A stretch of 42,972 nt of DNA from NCBI GenBank assembly GCA_034411955.1, contig DAOUMF010000067.1, forward strand, positions 1 to 42,972, read 5' to 3'. The translations under genes and the position numbers were made by a program. The notes under the pieces were generated by a model. It was not told the DNA's origin. It searched no databases and saw only the letters and a program-made list of their open reading frames with translations. Below, piece after piece: positions 1 to 41,567 of the stretch (the stretch's first letter is position 1; every line of letters begins with the position of its first letter). Source of the stretch: Dehalococcoidia bacterium. Its GTDB lineage: Bacteria; Chloroflexota; Dehalococcoidia; SM23-28-2; RBG-16-64-32.

Positions 1-2590
1 CATCGTACTTGCGCAGGAGCGACTTCGCCGTTTCCACGTCGCTCGTCGTGTAGATCTCCGCTACCTCGTCAGGACGGTCCGTGAACGGCGTCTCGGAGGG
101 CGAGCCCCCACCCTCTTCCGGACGCCCGCGCCACTGTATTTCATGACCCACCCAGCCGATGACAGTGGGCAGGCCGGTGCGGGATGAGACACGGGCATAG
201 TCACTGAAGTCATCGCCCACGCCCTCCAGGATCACCGGTGTGCCCTCCACGTTCCGGTTCAGCCACTGTATCGCTTCGTACTCCGCGGGCTCATCTCGCT
301 GCACGTACACCAGGCCGTTCACGCTCTGAGCGTGGCGAAAGCCGTCGCTCCGCTCGAATGTGACGGTGACGGGGTAGACTAGGGCCGCCGCCAGGACCAC
401 CGTCGTGACACCCAGCCAGCCCAGGCGCCGCCAGATGACGGTGCCGGAGGCATCCCGTACCGCGGCGGCGACGGCGTAGCCGGCGATGGACACGCCGACG
501 ATGAAGATCCCCAGCGTGGCCGTCCACCACCTGGCATACAGCACCTCCCAGGGCTCGATGGCCACGACAATGGTGTAGGCCGCCCCAAAGGCCAGGCCCA
601 CGCCGGCGAGCAGCCGCCAAGGAACCTCCTCCGGCCACAGCTTCGGTAACCGCCAGCCCAGGGTCAGCCGGTAGAGGCCGAAGCCGCCGACGATGGCGAG
701 TATGATCCAGCTCTGGTGCCAGAACCGGAAAACCGTGTTCGCCCGCCATCCTAAGATATCATTCACGAAATAGAACTCCGCCCCCAGGAGCATCATGAGC
801 GCGAATCCGGCCAGCAGAAAGGCGAATACCTGACCTCGATCGTGCTCATGAGAGGGCGTCCGTAGTTGATGGAGAAAGGCGAGCGCCACAGCCGTGATGG
901 AGGCTATGAGCATGAGCACCGTCAGGAGGCTTGGGCCCCGCTCCCAGAGCTCTTCCCCCAGGCGCTCAGGGCTGAGGTCTAAGGCCACCCGCCAGTCGAG
1001 CGGATTCCAGCCCAGGTCTACCAGCAATCCGGTCGTCACCAGAAACGCCCACAGACCCACGGGTACGGCCCAAAGCGAGGCGGCAAGGGCCAGCAGCGGA
1101 GGCTTCAGAATCTCGCGGCGGTGCCGGCACGCGTACGCGCCCACGAATGAGAGGCTGACCCACAGCAGCGGCGACCAGAACAGCAGGAAGTGCAGTGGCC
1201 GCGTTGACTCCGACGCGGCTGGCAGCCGGCCGACGGTCGCCGCCACCTCGGTGATGTCCACTCCGCTCGTCTGCGCCTTGAAGTCAAGGTAGAAGGGAAG
1301 GTACAAGAGGAGTACCGTCCCGATAATGGGGAGCACGAAGCCTGCGCTGTCCAGTAGCACTCGCCACAGGCTGCCGGCGGTCCGCAGCCAATTGGCGATG
1401 ACGGCCGCGGCCAGGATCATCAGACCGGTCACGGGTATCGTCCAGGCGTCTGTGAAGGCCACGCCCCCCAGCAGCAGGGCCAGCAACAGGTGGCGCCCCG
1501 GGTGACGTATCCACCAGAGGGCGTCCAGGCTTTCCTCCTTCGCTCCCTCCTTGGCAGAGCCTGCGCCGCGCGCTCCCAGCACGATGAGCAGAGCTGTCGC
1601 GAACACGGTGACAAGCAACGGCATAGCAAGCACGTGGGGATGCAGGTCCCCGAACTGGAAGCTGAAGAAGGGGAACTCCTGGATATCGAACCGCGAGCCT
1701 ATGCGGGTGGCCCACCACCACCACCAGTACCGCGTGGGGTACCACGCGCTGCAGTCGCCCGCAGCGCCTGCGCAGTCGTAGGGACCGTTCAGGCCGGAGA
1801 TACCCACGAGCCCGTAGAACCCCCGTGAGCCGACACCGTGCCGGGCCATCAACTCAAACACGCCCGCCAGGTTGCTCACTATCAGCATCAGTGCCGCCCC
1901 GCTCAGGCCGAACACGACTCCTCTCGGGATGAGAGCCGGGCCCTCCCGCAGCGTCCCGTCGGCCCGGCGCTGACTGACGGCGATCATGTTGTAGACCAGG
2001 CCGAAGCCCGTAACAGCGGCGAGAGCGGCCATCAGTGATAGCCCGAAATAGAAGGTCACGTTCGTACCCAGGGCCACGAGCTTGGTCAGGGCAGCGATCA
2101 TCACGTAGCCGAAGTAGTAGTAGCTGATGGAGTGGCCAGCAAGCCACGGGTCCCGAGGGGGAAACGACTCGCTGCGGCTGATCGAGTTCAGAAAGGCCAG
2201 CTCGAACGGCTTCTCGCCCCAGACGATCTCAGGCGCGAACGAACGGATGAATACGGCGCTGGCCAGCACCGCGAAGAACAGCACCTCCACGAGCGCGATG
2301 TACCCCCACCACGAGCGGAGGAAGCGCGTCATGTCCCGTCGATACGGTACCGCGAACGCGGCGGACAGGCCCGCCAGCAGCAGAAGAAGAAGGATCACGG
2401 AGCTGCGGCTGTTGGGGAAGAGGCCCACCACGGATCCCATCCAGAGGCCGTACGCTAACAAGAGCAGCCCCACGACCTTCGTGAAGGCAAAGCCACGGTC
2501 AGGAAGCCATCGGAAGAAGGCGAACGTCAGGGGGAAGGCAGCCAGGCCAACGGCCTCGATGCCCACCCACCACGCGAAGAATTCCTTCAT
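1..2590 (-). CDS. chlor_Arch_YYY (TIGR03662 / DUF2298) polytopic membrane protein, paralog A; 3' end runs off the left window edge
   Basis: Absent from the ORF track because no stop lies inside the window. Hand translation of the minus strand from ATG at 2590 gives MKEFFAWWVGIEAVGLAAFPLTFAFFRWLPDRGFAFTKVVGLLLLAYGLWMG. Further along it reads GEKPFELAFLNSI, PRDPWLAGHSISYYYFGYVM (YYY codons about 2114-2122) and RVSSRTGLPTVIGWVGHEIQWRG. At the window edge it reads EIYTTSDVETAKSLLRKYD. The sampled segments at both ends and in the middle share one frame and are colinear with the 859- and 816-aa paralogs. None of the listed minus-strand ORFs in 1-2772 uses this frame. Confidence 0.85.
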   Translation of the reverse strand, partial: MKEFFAWWVGIEAVGLAAFPLTFAFFRWLPDRGFAFTKVVGLLLLAYGLWMGSVVGLFPNSRSSVILLLLLLAGLSAAFAVPYRRDMTRFLRSWWGYIALVEVLFFAVLASAVFIRSFAPEIVWGEKPFELAFLNSISRSESFPPRDPWLAGHSISYYYFGYVMIAALTKLVALGTNVTFYFGLSLMAALAAVTGFGLVYNMIAVSQRRADGTLREGPALIPRGVVFGLSGAALMLIVSNLAGVFELMARHGVGSRGFYGLVGISGLNGPYDCAGAAGDCSAWYPTRYWWWWWATRIGSRFDIQEFPFFSFQFGDLHPHVLAMPLLVTVFATALLIVLGARGAGSAKEGAKEESLDALWWIRHPGRHLLLALLLGGVAFTDAWTIPVTGLMILAAAVIANWLRTAGSLWRVLLDSAGFVLPIIGTVLLLYLPFYLDFKAQTSGVDITEVAATVGRLPAASESTRPLHFLLFWSPLLWVSLSFVGAYACRHRREILKPPLLALAASLWAVPVGLWAFLVTTGLLVDLGWNPLDWRVALDLSPERLGEELWERGPSLLTVLMLIASITAVALAFLHQLRTPSHEHDRGQVFAFLLAGFALMMLLGAEFYFVNDILGWRANTVFRFWHQSWIILAIVGGFGLYRLTLGWRLPKLWPEEVPWRLLAGVGLAFGAAYTIVVAIEPWEVLYARWWTATLGIFIVGVSIAGYAVAAAVRDASGTVIWRRLGWLGVTTVVLAAALVYPVTVTFERSDGFRHAQSVNGLVYVQRDEPAEYEAIQWLNRNVEGTPVILEGVGDDFSDYARVSSRTGLPTVIGWVGHEIQWRGRPEEGGGSPSETPFTDRPDEVAEIYTTSDVETAKSLLRKYD

Positions 2591-3023
2591 TCCACTGGAA
2601 AGCTTACTTGTCTGCGAGCCCAAGTGACTAGCGTCTTCCTCCTTGCCCCTGGCCGAGACGCTGCCGGGGCACCTGCCACGGCTGCGAGTGGGCTCCAGCG
2701 GGCCACCGGTGTCGCCCGGTTGGGGCACTGGCCTCCGCAGCCACCGTTTGCGCTCACGCAGCGGCGCGGCACGACAACCTATGATCAGGCGTGGACGTTC
2801 TAAGCATAGGTATGCCGCAACCCCGCCCCCAGGACGCGTCGCTCCCCGAATCTCAGCCCGAAGGCGCACCGCCTGGCCTCCAGCCCCAGGGTGACGCCTG
2901 GCGGCTGGCAGAAGGGTGGGCGCCCAGCGATTTTGATCCGCCTACCGCCTGGCGCTGGTTCGCCTACCGGCAGCCGTACGGTAGGCTGTCAGTAGTGGAC
3001 GTGCAGATCCTGGCACCGACGCA

Positions 3024-6000
3024 GTGAGCGAACTGTCGGAGCGGATACCGCTCAAGAGCGGGGAAGAAGCGCGGCCGGCCCGCACTATCTCGACGCGTCT
3101 GCAGATCGACTGGCTGGTGGTGGCATTCGCTGCCCTGATCATCGTCGCGGCCGGCATGCGCTTCTGGGATCTCGGATCGCGCGCCTTTCACCACGACGAG
3201 AGCCTGCACGCGTGGACGGCCTGGAAGCTGTTCCAGGGGGAGCGGTACGAGCACGAGCCCTGGCTGCACGGCCCCTTTCAGTTCTTTGGCACGGCCCTCT
3301 CGTTCCTCCTGTTCGGGGTCAGCGACCAAACGGCGCGCATCCTGCCTGCCGTCTTCGGCTCAGCGCTGGTAGCGCTGCCCTTCTTCATCCGACGCCGCCT
3401 GGGGACGGCCGGAGCCCTGCTGGCCGCTGCGGCCATCGCCTTCTCGCCTACGCTGCTCTATTTCAGCCGCTTTGCCCGCAACGACATCTACATCGCCTTC
3501 TTCACCCTGGGCCTGGTGGTGGCCCTCTGGCGCTACATCGACGACCAGAAGCCGCGCTACCTGTACATGGCGGGACTACTCCTCGGACTCGCCTTTGCCA
3601 CCAAGGAAAGCATCTTCATCAACGCAGCGGTGCTGATAGCCTTCCTGAACGTCTGGCTGGCAGTCCACTTCTGGCGGCAAATCGACAACCACAACAGGCC
3701 GGGCGCCGGCTATAGTCTCAGCGCGCTCATCCTGTTGCTTGCCTCGGCCTGGGCCGTCGTTGCCCTCTGGCCCTTCACACGCAACTGGCGCGAACGAATC
3801 GGCCTTCGCCAGTGGCACCCGGCGGCCGACTTCCTCATCGTCCTCGGCACCCTGTCGCTGCCCCAGTTCGCCGCCGCCGTCCAGGTGCCGCTGGATGCTG
3901 TCCTCGGCGTTGATGATTCCGACCTGGCCCGCTCTGCTGGCGGCGGTCTCACCCGCGAGAACGTCCTCGGGTTCTTCTCCATCCTGACGCTCGTGGCCTC
4001 GACGGCCATCATCGGCCTGCGCTGGAACGCGAAGGTCTGGGCGGTGGTGGCGCTGGCGTTCTACGTTCCGTACGCGCTGCTGTACACCTCCTTCTTCACC
4101 AACCTGGACGGCTTCTACTCCGGCCACTGGGGATCCCTGGACTACTGGCTGGAGCAGCAGGACGTCCGCCGTGGTGATCAGCCTTGGTTCTACTACCTCA
4201 TGCTCCTGCCCACGTACGAGTTCTTGCCCCTCTTGTTCGCTGCACCAGCTCTCTTCTACTACGCTCTCCGCGGCGACGTGTTCCGCCGCTTCCTGGTGTT
4301 CTGGGCGGCCGCCACCGTGTTCGGCTACAGCATGGCCGGAGAGAAGATGCCATGGGTCAGCGTGAACACGGCGCTGCCGGTGATCCTCCTCGGAGCTATG
4401 GCTCTGGGGCAGCTCCTCACCTCGGCCCCCGCCCAAAGAGCGGGCGACTTCCTTGGAGCCTGTGCCCGGCCGCTGTCGGCAGCGGCGCTGGGCCTCACCC
4501 TCGTCTCCCTCGGTGTGTTTGGGCCGGCGGGCGGCCCCTGGATGGCGTTGCGCATCCTGTTGATGGCAGCGGCCTCACTGGGCCTCCTATGGCTCCTTCT
4601 GCCCGCGAACCTGGAGCGTCTCCCTGCTCCCGCCCGAGAGCGCCAGCGACGGGCTGGGCGCGACCCTGCACAGCCGATGGCCCTGCGGCGGATCGCCGTC
4701 GTGGTATCGTCCGCCGTAGCGGGAGGCCTGCTGGCCCTAACCCTGTTCGTCGGCGTGCGGCTGACCTATCAGCTCGGGGATGTCCCCCGGGAGCTTCTCG
4801 TCTATACCCAGACCTCGCCTCGCGTGCCCGACGTCGTCGACACCATCGAAGCGGCGTCTCGCACCTCGGGTCTGGGGGAAGACCTACCCGTCGTCATCGA
4901 CGGCGGCATCGAGCCCTGGATATGGTACCTGCGCGACTACGAGCACGTCACCTTCACACATGTGGGGGAGGGGTTCGAGGCACCGCCCGATGCGGTCGTC
5001 GTGGTGCTGGCTTCCAACGACGCAGTGATCCAGCCCTACGCCGGACAGTTCTACGAGCCGGTTCGCTTCCCCCTCCGCTGGTGGTTCCCTGAGTTCGAGA
5101 CCTACAAGACCCTGCCTACAGACAACGTGTTCGAGTTCGCCGAGGAGTTCGTGGGCAGCCTCTTCCGAGCCAGCACCTGGGGCAACTGGTGGACGTACTT
5201 CCGGGACCGAGCGCCGCCCAACGCACCCGCTGTCCCGGAGGAGGCCTTGGGGCGACTGGAGATGGTGGCCTACTTCCCCAAGCAGTACGGAGTCCAGGTT
5301 CCCACGGCGGGGCCGGAGCAGCCGCCCACCCCCACGATAACGCCGACCCTGCCGGCGCTGCGGAAGCTGCCGGTTGGCCTCGTGCTGGGCCAGTTCGGGA
5401 GCGAACCGGGCGCTTTCAACCAACCCGCCGGCCTGACCATTGACTCCCAGGGCAACCTGTACGTGACGGAGATCGGCAACCACCGCCTTCAGAAGTTCGA
5501 TCCGGACGGCAACGTCCTGGCCCAGGTGGGTGGCAAGGGTGAGAGCAACGGGCGCTTCGATGAGCCCTGGGGCGTGGCAACCGACGCAGAGGGTAACGTC
5601 TACGTCGCGGACACCTTTAACCACCGCATTCAGAAGTTCGACGCTGATCTCAATTTCCTTCGCGCCTGGGGCAGGCCAGCGTCCAGCCTCGACGATCCCG
5701 AACCTGACGCCTTCTGGGGGCCTTGTGACCTGGCCATCGACGCCGACGCCAACGTTTGGATAACCGATGGCGGAACCGGCCGCGTCCTCAAGTACAGCGC
5801 CGACGGTCGCCTCATTGAGGCGTTCGGCGGCCACGGCGATACCCCCGGCAGCTTCATCGAGCCCACCTCCATCGAAATCGCCCCCGCAGGCGACATCTTC
5901 GTGGCTGACGGCGGCAACCGGCGAGTGCAGAGATTCGACGCCCTCTTCAACTTCCTTGCCGAGTACCCGGTCCCCGGCTGGCTTTACGTGGACTCCGTGG

Positions 6001-6233
6001 CCAAGCCCTACATCGCCCTGTTGCCCGACGGCGGCCTGATCCTCAGCGACCCCACCCAGGACAAGCTGATCCGACTCGACGCGGAGGGCACGGCAGTTGC
6101 CACCCTCGACGCCGAAGATGCCCCGCTGACGCTGCCCCGCGGCGTCGCCTTCGACAGCCGCGGCTACGTGTACGTGGGAGAGGCCGGCCTCCATCAGGTG
6201 CGCCGCCTGGACCTCAGCGCTCCGGCGCCGTAG
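3024..6233 (+). CDS. TIGR03663-family / GT39(PMT_2, ArnT)-like polytopic membrane protein fused to a C-terminal six-bladed NHL-repeat beta-propeller
   Basis: 1069-aa ORF with a GTG start. The hydrophobic N-terminal ~700 aa carries the family-diagnostic DE dipeptide (HHDESLHAW, nt 3189-3200) and HGP tripeptide (WLHGPFQFF, nt 3267-3275). The C-terminal part (nt ~5388-6215) has six NHL repeats: GLTIDSQGNLYVTEIGNHRLQKFD, PWGVATDAEGNVYVADTFNHRIQKFD, PCDLAIDADANVWITDGGTGRVLKY, PTSIEIAPAGDIFVADGGNRRVQRFD, LILSDPTQDKLIRLD and PRGVAFDSRGYVYVGEAGLHQVRRLD. Confidence 0.85.
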   Translation: MSELSERIPLKSGEEARPARTISTRLQIDWLVVAFAALIIVAAGMRFWDLGSRAFHHDESLHAWTAWKLFQGERYEHEPWLHGPFQFFGTALSFLLFGVSDQTARILPAVFGSALVALPFFIRRRLGTAGALLAAAAIAFSPTLLYFSRFARNDIYIAFFTLGLVVALWRYIDDQKPRYLYMAGLLLGLAFATKESIFINAAVLIAFLNVWLAVHFWRQIDNHNRPGAGYSLSALILLLASAWAVVALWPFTRNWRERIGLRQWHPAADFLIVLGTLSLPQFAAAVQVPLDAVLGVDDSDLARSAGGGLTRENVLGFFSILTLVASTAIIGLRWNAKVWAVVALAFYVPYALLYTSFFTNLDGFYSGHWGSLDYWLEQQDVRRGDQPWFYYLMLLPTYEFLPLLFAAPALFYYALRGDVFRRFLVFWAAATVFGYSMAGEKMPWVSVNTALPVILLGAMALGQLLTSAPAQRAGDFLGACARPLSAAALGLTLVSLGVFGPAGGPWMALRILLMAAASLGLLWLLLPANLERLPAPARERQRRAGRDPAQPMALRRIAVVVSSAVAGGLLALTLFVGVRLTYQLGDVPRELLVYTQTSPRVPDVVDTIEAASRTSGLGEDLPVVIDGGIEPWIWYLRDYEHVTFTHVGEGFEAPPDAVVVVLASNDAVIQPYAGQFYEPVRFPLRWWFPEFETYKTLPTDNVFEFAEEFVGSLFRASTWGNWWTYFRDRAPPNAPAVPEEALGRLEMVAYFPKQYGVQVPTAGPEQPPTPTITPTLPALRKLPVGLVLGQFGSEPGAFNQPAGLTIDSQGNLYVTEIGNHRLQKFDPDGNVLAQVGGKGESNGRFDEPWGVATDAEGNVYVADTFNHRIQKFDADLNFLRAWGRPASSLDDPEPDAFWGPCDLAIDADANVWITDGGTGRVLKYSADGRLIEAFGGHGDTPGSFIEPTSIEIAPAGDIFVADGGNRRVQRFDALFNFLAEYPVPGWLYVDSVAKPYIALLPDGGLILSDPTQDKLIRLDAEGTAVATLDAEDAPLTLPRGVAFDSRGYVYVGEAGLHQVRRLDLSAPAP

Positions 6234-6239
6234 CCGGGA

Positions 6240-8819
6240 CTACCGAGACGCAGCTTCCGGAACCGGCGCGCTGGCCCGGCCCGCCAGGTCGTTGGGGACG
6301 CGGTAGATGGTCACGCTTGAGCTTGTGTACACCGCCTCGAAGGAGCGCTCGAACTTGGAGAGACCGTCTTCGCCGTAGACCTGCCTCTCGGCCGGGCCCA
6401 CGTACACGTAGTCGACGCCGTACTGCTCAAGGAGAGGCATCGCCTCAGAGAGATCAGGCGCGGCGTAAATCTTTTCGATCGCCTCCCTGCGTTCCGCCAG
6501 TGGGCGCTCCGACAGTGGGTCAGCGCACGTGCCGTAGGCGCGCCAGCGGCACTCGTGCCAGGGCCAACCCAGGATCGTCTGCAGGCCGGTGGCCGCTGAG
6601 ACCTGCCCTCGACCGGGGTCGTAGTCCTCACCCACCGCCTCAAGCACCACCGCATCCTCAGGGACGTTCTCTCCCAACCAGAGGAAGGCTTCGTAGCCAT
6701 CGCTGTTGTAGTCTTTGACGAAACTCAGCCCATCCAGCGTCTGCGTCGCCTCATTGAACTCGCCGGTGCGCCAGAGGGTGGCCGGCAACGGATAGACCAA
6801 CGCCCCGAGGATGATGACGGCGGTGATACCGCCCCAGGCGACCTTGCTCGCCAGGACCGAAGGTCCGCCGACCGGCCACCTAGAGAAGACGTAGTACAGG
6901 CCATAGGCCAGCGCCGCGCTGAGGAGGATCCAGGCCTGGAAGCCGATACGGAAGACGGTGTTGAAGCGAGTACCGAACGGGTCTTGCACCCAGAATAGCT
7001 CTATCCCGAGGAGCATGAGGAGCGCTACACCCGTGATCGTGATCACGAGAAGCGCTCCCTGCTGCCCTTCGCTCTCCTGCGCTCGCTTGGCCTGGAGGCG
7101 GAAGGCCAGGACAGCCAAAGCCAGCAGCGCGCCCAGGATCAGCATAGTGACCCAGCTCGCCTCCCGTGTCGCCACCTCGTCGGCCAGGCCAGCGGGGCCC
7201 CGCTTGGCCAGGATCAAGAAGGCCCAGATACCAAGGGGGACCAGCGCCGGCCAGACCACCGCCGCTGCCGAAGTCGCGACGACTTGAGCCCTCCCTGTGC
7301 CGACCGTCGCTCGGCCGGTTGACCTCCTCGCTGCTACCACCACAGCTACCACCAGGAAGGAGAGAAGCAGCCACACGTGCGGCAGCCACTGGTAGATGAA
7401 GTGGTGCGGCTGCGTCACGGTGGCCTCCAGGGGAGCGAAGCCGCGATGCATGACCTCGATAGGCTGGATCCCCTCGCTGACGGAGCGCAGGCCAACGTAA
7501 AAGGGAGCGAAAGCCAGCACCGCGAGGACCGCGGGGGGCAGCCCGAAGGCCAGCCCCGCCTCCACCGTCCCTCGACTGAAGCCCCCGTCGCGCACGTACC
7601 TCTTGAGGGCAGGGACCGCCACCAGGAGCAAGAGGAAGGGCGGCAGCGCCCATAGCTCGACGAAGCCGGTGGCCCCCACCACCAGCGCCGTCACTGCGAG
7701 CCGCGGCAGGTGGGCAAACCAGAACTGGACCCCCTCCAGGGCGGCGCGCCTCACGCCGGCGGCCACCTCGCGAACCAAGCTGTCGGCACGCTGGCCGCCC
7801 ACCCGCTCTATCGGCAGGTAGTCCGAGCGCCACAAGTCCAGGACGGCGGCCAGGGCCAGGAAGTCGAACGGGATCACCATCATGTGCGCGTGGAGGTCCC
7901 CCTGCAGAAAGGTGAAGAACGGGAACTCCCGCCCGTCCCAGGGGCTCGCTATCTGCACAGAGCGCACGACCCACCACCATTCCGTGGGGTACCACTTGGG
8001 CGACTCCACGGCCTCGGTGATGCCGTTGATGTCCAGTATCCTGTAGAACCTCTCTGAGCCAACGCCGTTGGCCGATAGCAGCTCCACCACTCCTACGATG
8101 TTGCTCAGGAAGAGAAGAAAGACGACGCCTGCCAGTCCGAAGAGCATGGCCCGCCATCCAAGCCGGGTCGCCAGCAGGTTGTAGACGATGCCGAAGACGC
8201 CACTGGCCGCCAGGGCGACGATCACGGCGATGGCGAGATTGAAGGTGATCCGGGATGGGATACCGGTGAGCTCCGTGAGGGTGGCGACGTTCATGTGGCC
8301 GAAGTAGTACCAGGCGATGGAGCCGCCTGACCACCAGGGATCTTGCGGGGGGAAATAGTCGCTGTGGAGGATGCCGTTGATGAAGGCGAAATCCGCCGTC
8401 TTCTCCGGGATGCTGATCTCCGGCACGAAGGAGCGCAGGTAGACGGCCACCGCGAACGAGACGGTGAACAGCCCCTCCACGGCCAGCATGTAGGGCCACC
8501 GCTCGCGGGCGAACGCCTGGAACTCAGAGCGCCGCCGCAACACCACGACGACCGAGGCCACGGCCATGACCGCCAGCAGGGCGATGATCGTCGCCCTCTC
8601 GAAGGGAAGGACGTGGAGAAGGCCGCCAATCCAGAGGGAGTATGAGAGGAGCACCAGCGCGAACACCTTCGCAAAGGCGTAGCCGCGGTCCGGCAGCCAC
8701 CTGAAGAAGACGAAGGCCAGCGGGAAGGCGCACAGCCCCATGAGCACCACAGCGATCCACCAGACGACCGCGTCCGGCTGCGAGAGCCACCAGAAGAGAG
8801 CGTCAAACGCTTCCCGCAT
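6240..8819 (-). CDS. chlor_Arch_YYY (TIGR03662 / DUF2298) polytopic membrane protein, paralog B
   Basis: 859-aa strongly hydrophobic ORF. Motifs: FRWLPDRGYAFAKV near the N-terminus, loop motif PEKTADFAFINGILH, and PQDPWWSGGSIAWYYFGH (a WYY variant of YYY). The C-terminal soluble region reads QVSAATGLQTILGWPWHECRWRAYG and VDYVYVGPAERQVYGEDGLSKF...VTIYRV. Clearly homologous to paralogs A and C but divergent by eye. Confidence 0.85.
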   Translation of the reverse strand: MREAFDALFWWLSQPDAVVWWIAVVLMGLCAFPLAFVFFRWLPDRGYAFAKVFALVLLSYSLWIGGLLHVLPFERATIIALLAVMAVASVVVVLRRRSEFQAFARERWPYMLAVEGLFTVSFAVAVYLRSFVPEISIPEKTADFAFINGILHSDYFPPQDPWWSGGSIAWYYFGHMNVATLTELTGIPSRITFNLAIAVIVALAASGVFGIVYNLLATRLGWRAMLFGLAGVVFLLFLSNIVGVVELLSANGVGSERFYRILDINGITEAVESPKWYPTEWWWVVRSVQIASPWDGREFPFFTFLQGDLHAHMMVIPFDFLALAAVLDLWRSDYLPIERVGGQRADSLVREVAAGVRRAALEGVQFWFAHLPRLAVTALVVGATGFVELWALPPFLLLLVAVPALKRYVRDGGFSRGTVEAGLAFGLPPAVLAVLAFAPFYVGLRSVSEGIQPIEVMHRGFAPLEATVTQPHHFIYQWLPHVWLLLSFLVVAVVVAARRSTGRATVGTGRAQVVATSAAAVVWPALVPLGIWAFLILAKRGPAGLADEVATREASWVTMLILGALLALAVLAFRLQAKRAQESEGQQGALLVITITGVALLMLLGIELFWVQDPFGTRFNTVFRIGFQAWILLSAALAYGLYYVFSRWPVGGPSVLASKVAWGGITAVIILGALVYPLPATLWRTGEFNEATQTLDGLSFVKDYNSDGYEAFLWLGENVPEDAVVLEAVGEDYDPGRGQVSAATGLQTILGWPWHECRWRAYGTCADPLSERPLAERREAIEKIYAAPDLSEAMPLLEQYGVDYVYVGPAERQVYGEDGLSKFERSFEAVYTSSSVTIYRVPNDLAGRASAPVPEAASR

Positions 8820-8831
8820 CAGTGCTCCCGC

Positions 8832-11282
8832 CTAGTCCGCTACCCCGGCACCGCTCAGGGTCACTGTCTCAGGCATCCTGTAGATGGTCACCTCAGCATT
8901 CTCGAAGGCCAGCTCCATGAACCGCCCGAACTTTGCGAGCCCCGTGTGCCCATACTGTTGCCGTTCGAAGGGCCCCACGTACACGTACTCGATATCGTAC
9001 TTCTCCAGGACGGCCCGGGCCTCGTCCACCGATGTCGTCGTATACGCTCGCGCGACATCCTCCGTGCGTCCCTGGAGCGGCTCGTCGGACCCCCTGTAGC
9101 CTTTCTCGTGTATGTACCACCCCAGCACCGTCGGCAAGCCAGTGCGAGAGGAGACGCGTCCAGCCTCCGAGTAAGCGTCCCCCACCGCTTCCAGGATCAC
9201 CGGCGCTCCGTCCACGTTCTCGTTGAGCCAGCGGATCGCCTCGTACTCGGAAGGGTTCGAGCTGCGGGCGAAGGCGAGGCCGTCCAGCGTTTGGGGCCTA
9301 TCGAATCCGTCTGTCCGGGCGAGGGTGGCGGTCAGGGGATAGACGAGTCCCGCCAGTATCAGCAGGACGGCTACCCCCGCCCAGGTGGGGCCGCCCAACC
9401 GGGCAACCAGGCTGCGCATCTCCCGCTGCAGCCCGCCGACCTCCAGGCGCGACGACACGTAATAAAGGGCGAAGGCGCCGCCCACCGCCAGGAACAACCA
9501 ACAATGGTGAAATACCTTGAACACAGTGTTGGTGCGCGGGCCGTCAAAATGGTCCAACTGGAAGAAGAGCTCTACGCCCAGCAGGAGCAGCACGCTCACC
9601 CCGACCGCGGCCACGGCCAGCAGCAGGCCATCGCGGTCCTCCCCTTCCTCCCCCAACGCCCGTACGAACGCCAGGCCGGCGGCCGCTACCAGCGCCGCAA
9701 GGAGCGCCAGGGTCAGGAGGTTGGCCTCCCGCAGCTCAAGCTCGCCTGCCAAGTGATTGAGGCTCGGATGGCCGACAATGTGCCAGCCGAGGGGATTCCA
9801 GCCTATATCCGCTCTCAATTGGGCCGCCACCAAGAACGCCCACAAGGCCACCGGCACGACCGCCGGCAGGAGCGCCCACGCCCCCTTCCAGCCGAGCCGC
9901 GACAGCCAGCGCCAGCTCAGCGGCGCGATGAGGAGGCCCGTACCCAACCACAGCAGGTTGCCCATCGTGAGGAACAGGTGCTTGGGCTGCGTGATCATGC
10001 TGTCCAGGGGCAGGCCCGGCTTGGCTATCGCCTCCACCGGCGCCAGCGACCATAGCCCGCCGCTCGACGTCCAGTAGAACGGAAGATACAGAATGATCGA
10101 TCCGACGGCGAGCGGAATGACAAACGAGGCGGTGTCCAGGATCGCCCGCCGCAGGGCGCCCTCCCGTTCCCTCCAGTTGCGGGCGAACACGACCAACGCC
10201 AGCAGGGCCAGGGTGGGCGGGTAGCTCCAGGCGTTGAGGAAGCTCAGCGACCCTAGGATCAACATCACCAGGACGAACGGGAGAGGGTGGCGCAGCGACC
10301 ACCACGCATCGAGCCTCTCCTTGGTGCGCAGCAGGTTGAAGCCCGTGCCCATCGCCAGCAGCGAGAACGGCATCACCATGACGTGGGGATGGAGGTCGCC
10401 CAGGAGGAAGCTGAAAAATGGGAACTCTTTGATGTCAAACGTGGAGGGCACCCGCGTACTCCGCCACCACCAGAAATGCTCCGTGGGGTACCACGCAGTG
10501 CTGCTCTTGTCCGCAGTCAGGCCCTCTATGTCAGCCCACTCGTACAGGGCAGACGGGCCCAGCCCGTGCACGGACATCAACTCCAGCACGCCGACCATGT
10601 TGCCGAGGATCGCGACCAGGACGACCGCCACCAGGCCGAAGGCGATGGCCCGGCGCACGCTCCCGGCGGAAGCGACGAGGTTGTACACTACCCCGAAGGC
10701 CACCGTCACCGTGAGGGCGGCCGTCAGAGCCAGGGCCACGTTGAAGCCCACGGCCGCGGACACCCCCGTGATCTTGATGAGAGCGCCCGCCATCACGAAG
10801 CCGAAGTAGTAGTAGCTGAGGGAGAAGGGCGTTAGCCAGGGATCGTGGGCGGGAAACTGGTCCGTTCGAAGGACGGCGTTCAGGAATGCGAACTCATCGG
10901 GCTTCTCGGTCCCGGCGATCTCCGGAACGAATGACCGCAGCCACACCGCCGCGAAAAATGCCGCTGCGAAGAGGCCCTCCACCAACATCAGATAGGGCCA
11001 ATGCTCGGCCAGAAAAGTGGATATCTCTTGGCGGCGCCGTCCCCAGATGACGACGCCGACCACCGCCAGCGCGCCCAGGATCAGCAGGGCCGCTCCCCGG
11101 CTGTTGCCTATGATCCCGATCGTGGCGCCCATCCATAGGACGTAGGCCAGCAGCAGGAGGCCAAGGGCCTTGGTGAAGGCGTATCCGCGATCAGGCAGTC
11201 CGCGAAAAACGGAAAAGGCTACGGGGAACGAAGCTGCGCCACCGATGGTGACAACCAGCCACCAGGAGAGTACCTCTGCCAT
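8832..11282 (-). CDS. chlor_Arch_YYY (TIGR03662 / DUF2298) polytopic membrane protein, paralog C
   Basis: 816-aa hydrophobic ORF. Motifs: FRGLPDRGYAFTKALGLLLLAYVLWMG, TEKPDEFAFLNAVLR, AHDPWLTPFSLSYYYFGFVMAG (YYY codons about 10806-10814), RVSSRTGLPTVLGWYIHEKGYRG, and IEYVYVGPFERQQYGHTGLAKF...VTIYRM. Its stop lies 12 nt upstream of the paralog B start. Confidence 0.85.
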   Translation of the reverse strand: MAEVLSWWLVVTIGGAASFPVAFSVFRGLPDRGYAFTKALGLLLLAYVLWMGATIGIIGNSRGAALLILGALAVVGVVIWGRRRQEISTFLAEHWPYLMLVEGLFAAAFFAAVWLRSFVPEIAGTEKPDEFAFLNAVLRTDQFPAHDPWLTPFSLSYYYFGFVMAGALIKITGVSAAVGFNVALALTAALTVTVAFGVVYNLVASAGSVRRAIAFGLVAVVLVAILGNMVGVLELMSVHGLGPSALYEWADIEGLTADKSSTAWYPTEHFWWWRSTRVPSTFDIKEFPFFSFLLGDLHPHVMVMPFSLLAMGTGFNLLRTKERLDAWWSLRHPLPFVLVMLILGSLSFLNAWSYPPTLALLALVVFARNWREREGALRRAILDTASFVIPLAVGSIILYLPFYWTSSGGLWSLAPVEAIAKPGLPLDSMITQPKHLFLTMGNLLWLGTGLLIAPLSWRWLSRLGWKGAWALLPAVVPVALWAFLVAAQLRADIGWNPLGWHIVGHPSLNHLAGELELREANLLTLALLAALVAAAGLAFVRALGEEGEDRDGLLLAVAAVGVSVLLLLGVELFFQLDHFDGPRTNTVFKVFHHCWLFLAVGGAFALYYVSSRLEVGGLQREMRSLVARLGGPTWAGVAVLLILAGLVYPLTATLARTDGFDRPQTLDGLAFARSSNPSEYEAIRWLNENVDGAPVILEAVGDAYSEAGRVSSRTGLPTVLGWYIHEKGYRGSDEPLQGRTEDVARAYTTTSVDEARAVLEKYDIEYVYVGPFERQQYGHTGLAKFGRFMELAFENAEVTIYRMPETVTLSGAGVAD

Positions 11283-11315
11283 AACACAGGGCCGCCCCTG
11301 GGCGGAAGCTGCCCG

Positions 11316-12110
11316 CTAGGGGCCGCCGTGCTTAAGATTGTACCTGCCCCGTAGGTTGTTGAACCACATCAGCAGCACTTGCCCCAGCATCCGGTACGAG
11401 TCCATTATCGGCCTGACGTTGCGCGTGGGCATGTACCGCCACGTTACAGGGATCTGCTTGATTCGGTGGCCGCGTCTCCTAGCCAGCACCAACAGCTCTA
11501 CGTCGAAGGCCGTCACTCGTGGCCCCTTCACGTCTCGGTCAGAGGAGGTGAAAACGACGAGACTGCGGAAAAGATCTCGCGCCACCTCTTTGCGGAAGCC
11601 CTTGAAGCCGCATTGCGTGTCATCAAACCCCGGCAGGAGCAGCAACTGGATCAAGTAGTTGAACGCCTTTCCCATCCAGCGCCGCGTCCACGGCGCACCG
11701 ATTCGCACGGCGCCCTTCGCTTCCCGCGAGCCCACGACGATGTCTGCTCCCTCGTCCAGCGCCTTGATGGCATCGGCCAAATGGTCCAGAGACGTGGCCA
11801 GATCCATGTCCATGAACAGCACATAGCGTCCACGCGCTGCCTGGATGCCGCTGGCCACAGCATGTGCCTTCCCTTGATGCCCCTGTCGGATCAGCCGTGC
11901 GCACGGCTCTCCCTCCACGACGGCCTCCACGAGGTCCGCCGTCTCATCCCCGCTCCCGTCATCGACCACGATCACCTCGTACTGGTAGCCTTGCCCGCGG
12001 AGGTAGTCAACGGCCGTCGACAGCGTCCCCTGCCGGACATGGCGCTCCTCGTTATACGCCGGGATCACCACCGACAGGGTAGGCTCGTCTGACTCGCTAC
12101 CCCGGCTCAT
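11316..12110 (-). CDS. family 2 glycosyltransferase, Dpm1/Alg5/GtrB-like (probable polyprenyl-phosphate hexosyltransferase)
   Basis: 264-aa ORF with GT-A motifs LSVVIPAYNEERHV, VVDDGSGDETADLV and FMDMDLATS (DxD). It overlaps the upstream GtrA-like ORF by 14 nt and ends 33 nt before paralog C. Confidence 0.88.
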   Translation of the reverse strand: MSRGSESDEPTLSVVIPAYNEERHVRQGTLSTAVDYLRGQGYQYEVIVVDDGSGDETADLVEAVVEGEPCARLIRQGHQGKAHAVASGIQAARGRYVLFMDMDLATSLDHLADAIKALDEGADIVVGSREAKGAVRIGAPWTRRWMGKAFNYLIQLLLLPGFDDTQCGFKGFRKEVARDLFRSLVVFTSSDRDVKGPRVTAFDVELLVLARRRGHRIKQIPVTWRYMPTRNVRPIMDSYRMLGQVLLMWFNNLRGRYNLKHGGP

Positions 12111-12687
12111 GGCCCTCAGGTGCCCGGCGAAAGATCAACTGGGTGTCCCAGGTCCAGTTCCAGGCGAAGGCCACCAGCACGCCTACGGGCACCGCCAGGA
12201 CGTGGTGCAACCCCACCGCGATGACCAGCACGTTCACCACGGTCGTCATGATGCCGCCGGTCGAGACAAGCGCCTTGCCGTTGAATTGAGCGAAGCGCAG
12301 CCACAGGGGCTTCTTGACGACAGTCCGTTCGCGGAACGTCCAGTTGGTGTGGGCCGTGAAGCTGGCGATGATCGCCAGTTCCGCCGCCAGCAGCGTGGAA
12401 TAGAGCAGGCGAGCATCGGTGTGGGTGAAGAAGACCATCCGGAGAGACGTGTCTTTGGCGGGAAGGAACCCGAGCAAGGGAGAATCGTAGGCCACGAACA
12501 GGGTCGTCTGATACGTCAGATAGCCGCCCGCTCCGACCAGCAGGAACTTGGCGAGCGTCTTCAGGCCAGCCCGCCTGCGCAGCAGCGCTTCCCGCAGAGT
12601 CGCCATGAGCGTGGCTCGAACCCCCACGGCTCCCGTGCCCGAACCTCCCGCCAGCGGGTCGTCTACCAGTTCGTCGCCCCTATTCAA
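12097..12687 (-). CDS. GtrA-family small membrane protein (putative lipid-linked sugar translocation/accessory protein)
   Basis: Four predicted hydrophobic helices. GtrA-like pattern: KFLLVGAGGYLTYQTTLF ... FTAHTNWTFRER ... FAWNWTWDTQLIFR. The N-terminal ~27 codons may not be translated; an alternative start is MATLREALL. Confidence 0.75.
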   Translation of the reverse strand: MNRGDELVDDPLAGGSGTGAVGVRATLMATLREALLRRRAGLKTLAKFLLVGAGGYLTYQTTLFVAYDSPLLGFLPAKDTSLRMVFFTHTDARLLYSTLLAAELAIIASFTAHTNWTFRERTVVKKPLWLRFAQFNGKALVSTGGIMTTVVNVLVIAVGLHHVLAVPVGVLVAFAWNWTWDTQLIFRRAPEGHEPG

Positions 12688-12765
12688 CGTCCTTCACCTT
12701 GGCCAGACCAGGCGATTTCATCGTAACCGAACCGTGTCGGTGCGCGCTCCACTGGCCTCTCCCGG

Positions 12766-13566
12766 CTAGCCGCCCACATGCTCCGTGGAGAGCTCCCGGC
12801 TCGCCTCAGGCACAGACTGGGGCTTGACAGCCACACAGGCGATGGATGTCCCCAGCGGTAGGTCAAGACGGGACAGCCAGCGCGCCTCGCCCCGGACAAC
12901 CCAGCCCAGGACCCTGTTGACGGGGGGCGGGACCAGCGCATAGTCCATCTTGCGGCTCGGGTTTCGCCGCAGGAGATGGCCCACCTTCACGAGGAAGAAA
13001 AGGGGCACCAGCAGCGGCAGGTTGATGTATGTTGCCCGCGCTCTCTCCAGCCCGGCAGCTCTCGTCTTCTCCTTCACCTCACCCAGACTGTAGCGACGAA
13101 CGTGGTGACACTGCTCGTCTCGGCGGCTCCACAGGAACTGAAAGGCCGGTACTGTGAAGATGATGGCGGCGCCCGGTCTCGCCACGCGATGCATCTCCCG
13201 CATGGCGTCCACATCGTCCTCCACGTGCTCCAGGACGTCGATGCTGGTAACCAGATCGAACAGCCCATCTCCGTATGGCAGCCGGGAAGCATCGCCCAAG
13301 CATGCCGAGTCGATGCCCCGCTCGCAGCAATACGTCACCGCCGTCGGGGAAACGTCCACCCCGTAGCCGCGACCCGCCTTCCCCAACTCTTTGAGAGTCG
13401 CCCCGCCGCCACAGCCGATGTCCAGGATCATCGGCTCTTGGCCGCCCTTGCCGTACCTTTTCCACAGCCTGCTGACGAGGGCACGCCGGCCCACGGACCA
13501 CCACCACCGGTCCTCATTCAGCACGTCGTATACAAAGTCTTCCATGTTTGGCCTCGTCCCCTCCAC
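12766..13566 (-). CDS. class I SAM-dependent methyltransferase
   Basis: Motif I ILDIGCGGGATLKELG, post-I YGVDVS, and DLVTSIDVLEHVEDD. The ORF opens at GTG 13566. The ATG at 13545 (MEDFVYDVL) has a GAGG 6 nt upstream and is an equally good start. Confidence 0.85.
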   Translation of the reverse strand: MEGTRPNMEDFVYDVLNEDRWWWSVGRRALVSRLWKRYGKGGQEPMILDIGCGGGATLKELGKAGRGYGVDVSPTAVTYCCERGIDSACLGDASRLPYGDGLFDLVTSIDVLEHVEDDVDAMREMHRVARPGAAIIFTVPAFQFLWSRRDEQCHHVRRYSLGEVKEKTRAAGLERARATYINLPLLVPLFFLVKVGHLLRRNPSRKMDYALVPPPVNRVLGWVVRGEARWLSRLDLPLGTSIACVAVKPQSVPEASRELSTEHVGG

Positions 13567-13721
13567 TTGCCGCCGGCCAAGGGGATCGGGAAGCGAATCT
13601 TAAGTCGCCCTGTCCGCTGTGTCAACGCAACATGCGTCAGGCGCGTTTGCGCCTCGACCTTTGGACGCGTCGGAGGGCCGAATCGTTATCAGCACGGCGC
13701 GCCAGCCCGCACAGCCTGCAC

Positions 13722-13844
13722 AGCGTCTACGTGGGCTGGCTGGAAAGGGAGAGGTACGGCGATGGGGGCCTCGCCAAGTTCGCCGACTTCCTGGATGGCG
13801 TCTTCCAGAAGCGCGAGGTCACCATCTACCGCGTGTCGGAACCG
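13722..13844 (+). pseudogene. relic of the C-terminal end of a fourth YYY/DUF2298 paralog, on the opposite strand from the intact copies
   Basis: Inside the otherwise junk-like ORF 13548..13901, the segment SVYVGWLERERYGDGGLAKFADFLDGVFQKREVTIYRVSEP aligns by eye with YVYVGPFERQQYGHTGLAKFGRFMELAFENAEVTIYRMPE (paralog C) and YVYVGPAERQVYGEDGLSKFERSFEAVYTSSSVTIYRVPN (paralog B). No membrane domain lies upstream. Confidence 0.6.
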
Positions 13845-13998
13845 ACCGAAGGGTCTGCGTTAGCGGGATCGCTCCGCCGTAGCCCAACCCGCAAAAGTTG
13901 ACGCCAGCGCCGTAGCCGTAGAGGACGGCGGTCACGGACACGACCCACCAGCCGTAGAAGCGCTCGCGAGCTCTGCTGGCCAGGCTCAAGCCAGGCAC
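13819..13998 (-). pseudogene. possible relic of an MFS-transporter N-terminus (59 codons, then runs antisense into the YYY relic)
   Basis: Hand translation from GTG 13998 gives VPGLSLASRARERFYGWWVVSVTAVLYGYGAGVNFCGLGYGG. After that the sequence becomes non-membrane-like and reaches TGA at 13819-13821. The FYGWW(I/V)V...G..(Y/F)G motif is typical of MFS N-termini, but the match is short. Confidence 0.3.
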
Positions 13999-16474: not shown

Positions 16475-16485
16475 ATCGTCCTCCC

Positions 16486-17709
16486 TTACCTGTAACCGAG
16501 GCGACGAAGGCAGTCGACAGTGTCGCGGGCTATTATCACTGCCTCGTCAACTGGAATGACGTAGGCCTGCGGTCGAGAGCCGTCCGAGCTGATCCTCGCC
16601 TCGGACCCCACGGCGGCCGCGTTGCGGTCCGGATCCACGGTCAAGCCGCACCAGTTCATGCCGGCGCAGATACGGGCCCGCACTGGCGGCGCGTTCTCGC
16701 CGATCCCCCCGCCGAAGATGACGGCGTCAGCACCTTCGAGCACGGCCAGGTATGCGCCGATGTACTTGCGGACGCGGTAGCAGAACATCTCCACCGCCAG
16801 GGAGGCGCGGACATCGCCCTGGCGTTCCGCCTCCAGGAGCTCGCGCATGTCGCCGGAGTGTCCGGACACACCCAACAGCCCGGATCGCGTGTTGAGCCAG
16901 CCCTCGACCTCTTCCGTTGAAGCGCCTTCTCTGCGGGCAAGGAAGCCCGCCAGCGAAGGGTCCACGTCCCCGGACCTTGTCCCCATCATCAGCCCCTCCA
17001 GCGGCGTGAACCCCATCGAGGTGTCCACCGACCGACCGCCCTCAACCGCTGCGGCGGAGCAGCCGGCCCCCAACTGCAACGTGATCAGCTTCGTCTCCTT
17101 GACCGGCGTGGCAGTGATGGCCGAGAAGTGCTCCACCATATAGCGGTGGGCCAGGCCGTGAAAGCCGTACCGCCGGACGCTATGCCGCTCGGCCAGGTCC
17201 GTCGGGATGGCGTATCTGGAGGCCCGCTCAGGCAGGCTGCGGTGGAACGCAGTGTCGAACGTCGCCACCATGGGCACCGAGGCGCCCAGCGCCGCCCGGC
17301 AAGCCTTGATCGCGGTCAACGCCGCGGCGTTGTGCAGGGGCGCCAGGTCGCTGAGCGCCTCGATCGCCGCTATCACCTCGTCGTCGACCGCAGTCGGCTC
17401 GACGAAGCGTTCACCGCCGTGGACGCCCCGGTGACCGACAGCCTCGATCCCCTTGGGCCCGAGGAGCCCGATGCCATCCAGCCATTCGACAACGCGGCGG
17501 GTGGCCTCCCCGTGATCGGCCACCGCGACGTGCGCTCTCAGCGGTTCGCTGTCCTCCGCCCTGAACGTGACGGCCGCCCGGCCGCCGACGCCGTCAACAA
17601 TGCCGCCAGCCAGCCGTCGCTCGTGGCCGTCGGCTCTGGCCGTGTTCTCAACTTCGACTACCTGGAACTTCAGCGTCGAGCTGCCGCAGTTGATGACGAG
17701 GATCTTCAT
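16486..17709 (-). CDS. ackA: acetate kinase
   Basis: Classic N-terminus MKILVINCGSSTLKFQV, plus RYGFHGLAHRY and the TSMGFTPLEGLMMGTRSGDVDP motifs. The ORF is open up to 17754, but family N-termini begin at the MKILV methionine (17709). Confidence 0.9.
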   Translation of the reverse strand: MKILVINCGSSTLKFQVVEVENTARADGHERRLAGGIVDGVGGRAAVTFRAEDSEPLRAHVAVADHGEATRRVVEWLDGIGLLGPKGIEAVGHRGVHGGERFVEPTAVDDEVIAAIEALSDLAPLHNAAALTAIKACRAALGASVPMVATFDTAFHRSLPERASRYAIPTDLAERHSVRRYGFHGLAHRYMVEHFSAITATPVKETKLITLQLGAGCSAAAVEGGRSVDTSMGFTPLEGLMMGTRSGDVDPSLAGFLARREGASTEEVEGWLNTRSGLLGVSGHSGDMRELLEAERQGDVRASLAVEMFCYRVRKYIGAYLAVLEGADAVIFGGGIGENAPPVRARICAGMNWCGLTVDPDRNAAAVGSEARISSDGSRPQAYVIPVDEAVIIARDTVDCLRRLGYR

Positions 17710-17887
17710 CGAGGCCACGCGAGGTCGCTCTCGTAGGTCATGCATATGATACATTCTCCACGTCCGGCGCGCCGGAACCAGTGCGAGCGACGAACCCGCA
17801 CCGGCGCATTACCGTCTGTTATAGTCAGCGGCAGAGCTCTCGTCGCCGTGATGACTGATGAACATCGAAGGGAGAGCCGACTAAGGC

Positions 17888-40321: not shown

Positions 40322-40774
40322 GAGCCACCTCCGATCCGGGCCTCTTGGGATCTCTGTTCCCTTCGAGGAACGCAACGTTCCCGAGGGTGCGCCTTCCCCT
40401 CCCCAAAGACTGCTCGCGGAGGGTCTACCCACCATACCACTAAATGGTCCGCCTCTATTGCAGACTCAGGCGCTGGGGGTCACCCTCGCGTTTTCCCTAA
40501 GGTACAGGCCATTCCCTGTCGCGTCAATCCGGGCGTGATCCACAGGTCCTAGCGTTGGAAGTTCGGGCCGCCGGAAACCGTGACCGCCGGAGTGAAAATC
40601 CGGGAGTCACATGGCCGCCAAGAAGCGTGCATTCGCTATCTAAGGCGAGTGCAGTCGAGTGCCCGAAATCGTCCAATCCCCTAGTCGCGAACGAATCCCC
40701 CAGTCAGCATTGACCGCACGGCACGGCCGAGATGGCCAGATGTGAGCGTTGAGAAGCTGGCAAACGATGGGTAA

Positions 40775-41491: not shown

Positions 41492-41567
41492 GTGAGGGCC
41501 GGCAGGCGCGATGAACCCTCTGCCCTCTATCTGAGAGCGAGGCCGAGGTGATAGCGGAGGTAATGGA

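Follow-up and report, generated by a model that had tools for sequence, protein, structure and literature searches.

In the GtrA/GtrB/GtrC, GacI/GacJ/GacK/GacL, and ArnC/ArnT systems, a common logic is followed: a family 2 glycosyltransferase (GT2) makes a polyprenyl-phosphate-linked sugar, a small membrane protein assists or flips, and a GT-C-type glycosyltransferase performs the transfer on the outside. GacJ, the small membrane protein of the Gac system, is found in a complex with the GT2 GacI, which it stimulates (bioRxiv 10.1101/180810). Among the GT-C transferases, GT-CA enzymes share a common module that comprises transmembrane helices 1 to 7 (TM1-7) and, in the first outer loop, a pair of juxtamembrane helices, the first of which, JM1, bears a catalytic Asp at its tip (PMC12041299). 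In the archaeon Haloarcula hispanica, Agl23 was earlier proposed as a hexose-P-dolichol flippase alongside the GT2 Agl22, and the protein, once purified, flipped Man5GlcNAc2-PP-dolichol (M5GN2-PP-Dol) in proteoliposomes; Agl23 also rescued a yeast rft1-delta strain (PMC11182771). Here, these systems are compared with a locus at one end of a 42,972-nucleotide (nt) stretch of DNA from a Dehalococcoidia bacterium of the phylum Chloroflexota (contig DAOUMF010000067.1, assembly GCA_034411955.1), which was analyzed over its whole length and is hereafter called the window. The locus contains three genes for large DUF2298/TIGR03662 membrane proteins (YYY-A, YYY-B, and YYY-C), one gene for an Agl23-like (TIGR03663) protein, and a methyltransferase-GtrA-GT2 module.

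In the original prediction, which was made from the sequence alone, the YYY and TIGR03663 proteins were proposed to be outer-face transferases fed by the GT2/GtrA pair. This lipid-linked-sugar interpretation is largely supported, with corrections. The region probably serves envelope glycosylation by way of a lipid-linked sugar, and the system follows the logic of Gtr, Arn, Gac, Emb/Aft, and protein O-mannosyltransferases (PMT), with multiple YYY paralogs tied to Agl23. The YYY proteins almost certainly possess the GT-C fold, as judged from a structural model, and a YYY gene next to an Agl23-like gene is the core of such loci across the phylum. Because the scheme of a lipid-linked sugar and a GT-C transferase is already well known, what is added here is a new enzyme family and not a new type of system. 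For the large DUF2298 family (∼10,000 clusters at 50% identity), the oligosaccharyltransferase-like GT-C fold and the fixed pairing with Agl23 provide a concrete, testable function. These findings also bear on how archaeal Agl23 works, be it in flipping, in transfer, or within a complex, and they point to surface glycosylation in Chloroflexota, whose envelopes are poorly understood. The features of the locus, with lengths in amino acids (aa), are as follows.

1 to 2590, minus strand: YYY-A, DUF2298/TIGR03662 paralog; 863 codons present, the window edge removing ∼50 C-terminal residues
2812 to 3027, plus strand: relic of a PMT_2/TIGR03663-like GT-C gene (3′ end); 71 codons (tblastn, translation)
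3024 to 6233, plus strand: Agl23-like protein (TIGR03663, PMT_2), polytopic, GT-C-type, with an NHL propeller; 1,069 aa (Pfam, NCBIfam)
6240 to 8819, minus strand: YYY-B, DUF2298/TIGR03662 paralog; 859 aa (Pfam, NCBIfam, paralogy)
8832 to 11282, minus strand: YYY-C, DUF2298/TIGR03662 paralog; 816 aa (the same families and a modeled GT-C fold)
11316 to 12110, minus strand: GT2, soluble; 264 aa (PF00535, profile match in PDB)
12097 to 12687, minus strand: GtrA/DPMS-TM family membrane protein; 196 aa, TTG start (PF04138)
12766 to 13566, minus strand: S-adenosylmethionine-dependent methyltransferase (Methyltransf_11); 266 aa, first gene of the co-directional run
13597 to 13625, minus strand: sigma-70-like promoter match, TTGACA-17-TAAGAT, 10/12; ∼30 nt upstream of the methyltransferase start

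When the list of open reading frames (ORFs) was rechecked, all predicted gene coordinates, strands, and spacings proved correct, and Pfam and NCBIfam searches confirmed the assignments to PF10060/TIGR03662, TIGR03663, PF00535, PF04138, and Methyltransf_11. YYY-B and YYY-C are separated by 12 nt and YYY-C and the GT2 gene by 33 nt; the GT2 and GtrA-like genes overlap by 14 nt. The TIGR03663 gene diverges from YYY-A across 433 nt and converges on YYY-B with a gap of 6 nt. The nearest relatives are Dehalococcoidia metagenome-assembled genomes.

The fold of the YYY proteins

YYY-A, YYY-B, and YYY-C score 385, 438, and 506 bits, respectively, against TIGR03662 (cutoff, 300.25 bits) and match PF10060 with E values of 1e-80 to 1e-93. 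The YYYxG motif reads YYYFG in YYY-A and YYY-C and WYYFG in YYY-B. As originally proposed, the three proteins are paralogs, with a similarity far above the chance level: YYY-C is 38% identical to YYY-B (E = 9e-160) and 40% identical to YYY-A, and YYY-B and YYY-A are 33% identical. YYY-A has an extra insert of ∼75 aa (roughly aa 645 to 720), and no close ortholog of this protein was found in related loci, whereas YYY-B and YYY-C have clear orthologs in the relative L082 (70% and 80% identity, respectively). Thus, the paralogs are of old standing and have been maintained separately.

An alignment of 44 YYY homologs was used to identify invariant positions and to generate an AlphaFold2 model of YYY-C (pLDDT, 91.6; pTM, 0.93). 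When this model was compared with PDB using Foldseek, the best 15 matches were all GT-C enzymes, with a probability of 1.00 and E values of 1e-6 to 2e-3, in agreement with the GT-C-like fold that had been proposed. These matches include human STT3A (E = 1.2e-6), Archaeoglobus AglB, the C-mannosyltransferase DPY19, the arabinosyltransferase AftA (TM-score of up to 0.52 on the target), and ArnT. The next matches, to pyrophosphatases and transporters, have probabilities of 0.2 or less and TM-scores of ∼0.1.

The best fold matches of YYY-C belong to the STT3/AglB/PglB oligosaccharyltransferases (CAZy GT66; E of 1e-6, probability of 1.00), and the architecture is alike, in that a globular C-terminal domain located outside the cytoplasm follows a polytopic GT-C core. 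The last ∼160 residues of YYY-C match two structures of the corresponding AglB domain (3vu0 and 3vgp, with probabilities of 1.0 and 0.96, respectively). A further likeness concerns a flexible outer loop toward the end of the membrane domain: in YYY-C, loop 487-520, which is modeled with a low pLDDT and in which position 514 is conserved as acidic, appears to be placed like the one in the oligosaccharyltransferases. In contrast to these enzymes, the YYY proteins show no detectable sequence similarity to them, and neither the STT3-type WWDYG motif (WWD[YWF]G) nor a Pfam STT3 match was found in YYY-A, YYY-B, or YYY-C; the YYY motifs are EKP, DPW, YYYFG, GDLHPH, and GW..HE. Because the WWDYG motif is missing, the YYY proteins are best placed outside the STT3/AglB/PglB family, the likeness in the model being one of architecture and of C-terminal domain fold only. 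Their donor is also more likely to be a polyprenyl-monophosphate monosaccharide than the pyrophosphate-linked oligosaccharide used by those enzymes.

Based on the helix list of the model and the positive-inside rule, YYY-C would have ∼16 membrane helices, not 13, with the C-terminal domain outside; three extra helices at the N terminus would precede a 13-helix core resembling that of the oligosaccharyltransferases. The first large outer loop of YYY-C (117-175) contains two helices, 127-139 and 160-172; the N-terminal tip of helix 127-139 carries the invariant E126 and position 130, which is acidic in all aligned homologs. By secondary structure, this loop pattern would fit the GT-CA module if helix 95-116 is TM1. 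Across the 44 sequences, ∼45 positions are invariant, many of them acidic residues or His in predicted outer loops, where acidic residues had been anticipated. In YYY-C numbering, the invariants include LPD31RG, R116, E126-K127, D147-P-W149, Y158, E286, G295-D-L-H-P-H300, R583, and N585 and, in the C-terminal domain, W685, E698, W722, and H725. Tandem GT-C paralogs with C-terminal outer domains are also known from embCAB/Aft, and AftA is among the best structural matches; however, the YYY proteins have no sequence homology to Emb/Aft, and the locus provides no arabinan pathway context.

The likely partnership of YYY and Agl23-like proteins

To survey the neighborhood of YYY genes, one genome per species was scanned, yielding 80 loci (L001 to L080), nearly all from Chloroflexota. 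Downstream neighbors were counted in the 68 loci with at least 1.5 kb of downstream sequence. An Agl23-like gene lies on the same strand, 3′ of YYY and within 2.5 kb, in 52 of the 68 loci, and another 5 have a divergent TIGR03663-like gene (560 to 620 aa) at that place, so that YYY and Agl23-like genes are neighbors in at least 57 of these loci. Often, two Agl23-like genes follow YYY, the second one encoding an NHL propeller. Thus, the phylum-wide core consists of YYY and an Agl23-like gene, in agreement with an old TIGRFAMs note on the co-occurrence of TIGR03662 and TIGR03663. In addition, three giant proteins (P0247, P0252, and P0269; 2,434 to 2,719 aa) combine an N-terminal PMT_2 domain with two DUF2298/YYY domains, and these fusions are strong evidence that the membrane modules act together. 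One of the three scanned PMT_2-bearing giants (P0269) carries C-terminal TPR repeats, a hint of protein substrates, and this combination of PMT_2 and TPR in the fused YYY giants recalls TMTC (PMT/TMTC O-mannosyltransferases). Taken together, a partnership between YYY and Agl23-like proteins is very likely.

The 3024 ORF scores 253 bits against TIGR03663 (cutoff, 126.25 bits) and matches PMT_2 and NHL as well; several of its homologs match PMT besides PMT_2. Both families were originally considered orphans, which holds for YYY, with no functional study of DUF2298, PF10060, or TIGR03662 found in full-text literature searches, but not for TIGR03663, which is the Agl23 family and has a published flippase activity in a haloarchaeon; the NCBIfam name of the family is “flippase activity-associated protein Agl23.” The likeness to the H. 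hispanica Agl22/Agl23 pair extends to the partner, given that the 3024 ORF, above the TIGR03663 cutoff, is paired with a GT2 of the polyprenyl-phosphate-hexose-synthase type, like Agl22. Compared with archaeal Agl23, however, the window protein shows 32 to 39% identity over the N-terminal ∼200 residues and adds a C-terminal NHL propeller; the window GT2 has no equivalog among the named archaeal enzymes, and the published haloarchaeal work involved no YYY proteins. The propeller is a six-bladed NHL beta-propeller (aa ∼779 to 1063, nt ∼5358 to 6212). When the full-length Agl23-NHL model was searched with Foldseek, NHL propellers occupied all 50 matches listed; the membrane part alone, as a profile, gave no sequence match in PDB.

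Among 43 Agl23-like sequences, H57-D58-E59-S60, H82-G83-P84, R46, R53, and R105 are invariant, in line with the TIGR03663 family description, in which an invariant DE dipeptide and HGP tripeptide, along with Arg residues, mark the N-terminal part. In the model, D58-E59 sits at the tip of helix 57-70, the first of the loop helices. Because this is where a GT-C enzyme would bear the catalytic acid, the Agl23-like protein may act in transfer, either in place of flipping or in addition to it. Its role as a transferase, as first proposed, thus finds a basis in the PMT_2-like sequence and the invariant DE motif, whereas the only experimental data are those on flipping.

The 433 nt between YYY-A and the TIGR03663 gene had been described as a plain spacer, but they hold the remnant of a fifth GT-C gene. 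In tblastn searches, the relic ORF shares 73.6% identity over 53 aa (E = 2.7e-20) with the C terminus of a protein from L082 and 37.5% identity over 72 aa with a 598-aa PMT_2 protein from L084. In both relatives, the counterpart is an intact gene for a PMT_2-like membrane protein directly 5′ of the Agl23-NHL gene, and the overlap of the relic stop codon with the Agl23 start codon, GTGA, is the same. Judging from these comparisons, the fifth gene was probably shortened by the rearrangement that brought YYY-A to its present place; the breakpoint falls at ∼2590 to 2806.

Several other genes recur around YYY and Agl23-like genes. A gene for FtsY, the signal recognition particle receptor, is within 3 kb of YYY in 37 of the 80 loci and, in L030 (8988 to 9944), is directly upstream of YYY on the same strand; this proximity may reflect plain conserved gene order or a link to membrane protein targeting. 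A PF03706 gene (MprF flippase-like, LPG_synthase_TM) is present in 26 of the 80 loci, for example, at L070:17659 to 18669, and a gene of the flavin amine-oxidase family is present in 23; both adjoin Agl23/PMT_2-like genes in L030 (15187 to 17618) and L084 (19971 to 22391), and neither was found in the window. PF07995 genes (glucose/sorbosone dehydrogenase-like beta-propeller) adjoin YYY or Agl23 in L081, L084, L089, L090, and the archaeal L092 (6497 to 7897). In L025, which has no adjacent Agl23-like gene, a gene for a PMT (PF02366 and PMT_4TMC; 12409 to 13905, minus strand) converges on YYY, and a similar 509-aa ORF occupies this place in L034. Finally, assembly GCA_040961615.1 contains two methyltransferase-GtrA-YYY loci (L081 and L089) with at least three YYY genes each, such that some genomes may hold at least six YYY paralogs, unless this bin is mixed.

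The methyltransferase-GtrA-GT2 module

The GT2 contains a DMD (DXD) motif at 101-103, and no transmembrane or hydrophobic segment was found in its 264 aa. Its best PDB match is to residues 25-199, the catalytic domain, of the Pyrococcus furiosus dolichol-phosphate mannose synthase (DPMS; 5mlz; E = 5e-17), followed by ArnC and the Synechocystis protein sll0501 (1.9e-10), which we take to be GtrB-type; DPMS, ArnC, and sll0501 account for ranks 1, 2, and 5 to 9. JGI or NCBI annotate homologs with 53 to 57% identity as dolichyl-phosphate beta-glucosyltransferase, and no NCBIfam equivalog cutoff was reached. These matches, with DPMS and ArnC at the top, agree with the assignment originally made and indicate that the GT2 is likely a lipid-sugar synthase of the polyprenyl-phosphate type. 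GtrB has two C-terminal TM helices, which are missing from the window GT2. The GtrABC scheme of the original prediction therefore stands for the GtrA family (PF04138) but not for GtrB, nor for GtrC: Pfam searches with the four large membrane proteins gave DUF2298 or PMT_2 and no GtrC-family match. The YYY proteins likewise lack sequence homology to GtrC, GacL, and ArnT, and, compared with the Gtr system, at least four GT-C genes are present per locus here, in a setting that is neither a prophage nor an O-antigen cluster.

The GtrA-like protein scores 40.6 bits against PF04138 (“GtrA/DPMS transmembrane domain”; cutoff, 26.1 bits) over residues 47-186. The exact 196-aa product was not found in the public protein collection; the deposited gene call thus starts elsewhere, and the start codon is uncertain, the products of relatives having 184 to 197 aa. 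Its only PDB match is to the membrane domain of 5mlz (residues 288-364; E = 0.016). Given these two matches to 5mlz and the conserved 14-nt overlap of the genes, the GT2 and the GtrA-like protein may form a two-subunit version of the Pyrococcus synthase, encoded here by two genes with the membrane part first and the catalytic part second, in contrast to L092, where GT2 precedes GtrA. The GtrA-like protein, proposed as a translocase, may then be the membrane subunit of the GT2 instead or in addition. Several observations weaken this split-synthase reading: the match of the GtrA-like protein is weak, no GT2-GtrA fusion was found among the 120 closest GT2 homologs, and the GT2 gene is 6 to 8 kb from GtrA in three relatives. 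Without fusions, the idea rests only on the distant matches to 5mlz. As a further comparison, Mycobacterium tuberculosis Rv3632 was considered as a GtrA-family partner of PpgS and was dropped, because Rv3632 belongs to DUF2304 (GacJ-like; bioRxiv 10.1101/180810). The methyltransferase has one hydrophobic segment (aa 178-199); that it acts on the sugar is a guess.

The genes from the methyltransferase to YYY-B are packed as one co-directional unit, and this packing is kept in relatives. No terminator-like site was found in any intergenic gap of the module, which, together with the promoter-like site upstream, is compatible with a single transcript; the promoter match is suggestive only, the scan of the region having returned 2 sigma-70-like sites versus 1.3 expected, which is statistically uninformative. 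The order methyltransferase-GtrA-(GT2)-YYY-YYY recurs in six further contigs of the window's clade (L081, L082/L083, L084, and L089 to L091), where the YYY-C orthologs are 52 to 80% identical. In all seven cases, the window included, the methyltransferase-GtrA pair is directly 5′ of YYY, with gaps of 33 to 115 nt or translational overlaps, and the 14-nt and 12-nt spacings are identical where readable (L081 and L082/L083). Those contigs that reach far enough contain the convergent PMT_2-like→Agl23-NHL pair, and on the opposite side, all six carry a further one to three YYY genes.

Within Chloroflexota, the methyltransferase-GtrA-GT2 arrangement beside YYY is confined to this clade. Synteny of GT2 and GtrA with YYY, which had been put forward as a check on the original prediction, accordingly does not extend across the phylum but does hold in the window's own clade, and a similar Agl23-GT2-GtrA linkage is seen in Archaea. 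For example, Agl23 overlaps GtrA by 4 nt on Halogeometricum pHBOR02, and the archaeal metagenome contig L092, with a 56%-identical Agl23, has the order Agl23→GT2→GtrA; Agl23 is linked to GtrA in these two of three archaeal loci, the third having neither GT2 nor GtrA. Outside these groups, a DUF2298 gene on a Pseudobutyrivibrio plasmid belongs to a polysaccharide cluster and lies among GT2, glucosyltransferase-domain, O-antigen-ligase, and sugar-epimerase genes.

A proposed route, its alternatives, and the rest of the window

The identities of the genes, the GT-C fold of YYY, its conserved pairing and fusion with Agl23-like proteins, and the gene packing kept in relatives come directly from the analysis. 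For the glycosylation route, the donor sugar, the acceptor, the flipping protein, and the catalytic residues are those that we infer from the comparisons above. On the cytoplasmic face, the GT2, probably together with the GtrA-family membrane protein encoded by the overlapping gene, would use a nucleotide sugar to load polyprenyl phosphate with a hexose (probably glucose), and the membrane-associated methyltransferase may modify the sugar. The lipid-linked sugar would then reach the outer face, with the GtrA-like protein, the Agl23-like protein, or another protein as candidate helpers. There, the three YYY paralogs and possibly the Agl23-like protein would glycosylate envelope acceptors, possibly surface proteins, different paralogs serving different acceptors or linkages. 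That the product of the GT2 feeds the YYY proteins has about an even chance.

Several results weigh against this route. No acceptor could be identified within the window, and near YYY, a DPMS-like GT2 is found in 8 and GtrA in 2 of the 80 species-level loci, which is close to chance for the common GT2. The Foldseek TM-scores of YYY-C to GT-C enzymes are modest (0.3 to 0.5). At the sequence level, Pfam searches with the YYY proteins up to an E value of 10 gave DUF2298 only and no GT-C family, phmmer and profile HMM searches of YYY against PDB found no match, and hhalign of the YYY profile with the Agl23 profile gave a probability of 0.9%. Finally, the experimental data on Agl23 indicate flipping only, not transfer (PMC11182771).

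This last point leads to a different division of labor, in which the Agl23-like protein is a flippase or scramblase and the YYY proteins alone are transferases, YYY→Agl23 being a “flip and transfer” unit. The activity of the purified H. hispanica protein and its rescue of the yeast mutant (PMC11182771), the NCBIfam name, and the tight pairing and fusion with YYY all favor such a unit. However, the invariant H-D-E at the tip of the first loop helix, with HGP and Arg, matches the catalytic-acid site of GT-CA enzymes, the family is PMT_2/PMT-like, other flippase-type genes are already present in many loci (PF03706, as counted above, and GtrA here), and an extracytoplasmic NHL propeller is hard to fit with a pure flippase; we therefore consider this division possible but somewhat doubtful. 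Conversely, an unrecognized oligosaccharyltransferase-like GT-C family in which YYY works only as a pair or complex with a GT-C protein of the Agl23 type, in both Chloroflexota and Archaea, is a tentative and rather unlikely extension of the glycosylation route. If it is true, the pair could be, for example, a transferase decorating surface-layer proteins on the outer face, and the “flippase” phenotype of archaeal Agl23 would represent one half of a two-enzyme machine.

It is also conceivable that two unrelated modules are merely neighbors, with YYY and Agl23-like proteins as the true system and methyltransferase-GtrA-GT2 serving another pathway or representing a lineage-specific accessory. 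The low counts of GT2 and GtrA near YYY, to which the methyltransferase adds only 10 of the 80 loci, fit this explanation, as does the variable position of GT2 even among relatives. The explanation is nevertheless quite unlikely: the methyltransferase-GtrA pair is directly 5′ of YYY in every examined contig of the clade, two of the three archaeal loci show a separate linkage of Agl23 to GtrA or GT2, and among the 119 GT2 homologs listed, at least 11 are on contigs equal in length to one with a listed YYY or Agl23 homolog (a proxy only). Least probable, and indeed highly unlikely, is that YYY is not a glycosyltransferase at all but a GT-C-shaped polymerase or ligase, a transporter or scramblase, or a noncatalytic scaffold for Agl23. 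No characterized YYY member was turned up by the literature searches, the sequences resemble no known GT-C family, and the WWDYG motif is missing; yet the confident fold matches are exclusively to GT-C enzymes, the invariant positions include the many acidic and His residues in predicted outer loops, and the divergent paralogs are kept as separate orthologous lines, as is typical of enzymes that differ in specificity.

The remainder of the window (14 to 43 kb) encodes a phosphoketolase, an acetate kinase, sugar kinases, aminotransferases, and other metabolic proteins, along with one tRNA-Lys. This content is metabolic only, and the glycosylation module thus ends at ∼13.6 kb. The phosphoketolase and acetate kinase genes (14003 to 17754, minus strand) adjoin the module on the same strand and belong to unrelated metabolism. 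Toward the other end, two ORFs on the minus strand (37563 to 39647 and 41151 to 42272; 694 and 373 aa) have no Pfam match. Between them are an ORF with a weak, subthreshold DUF3558 match (39644 to 40435, minus strand) and the tRNA-Lys(UUU) gene (40775 to 40849).

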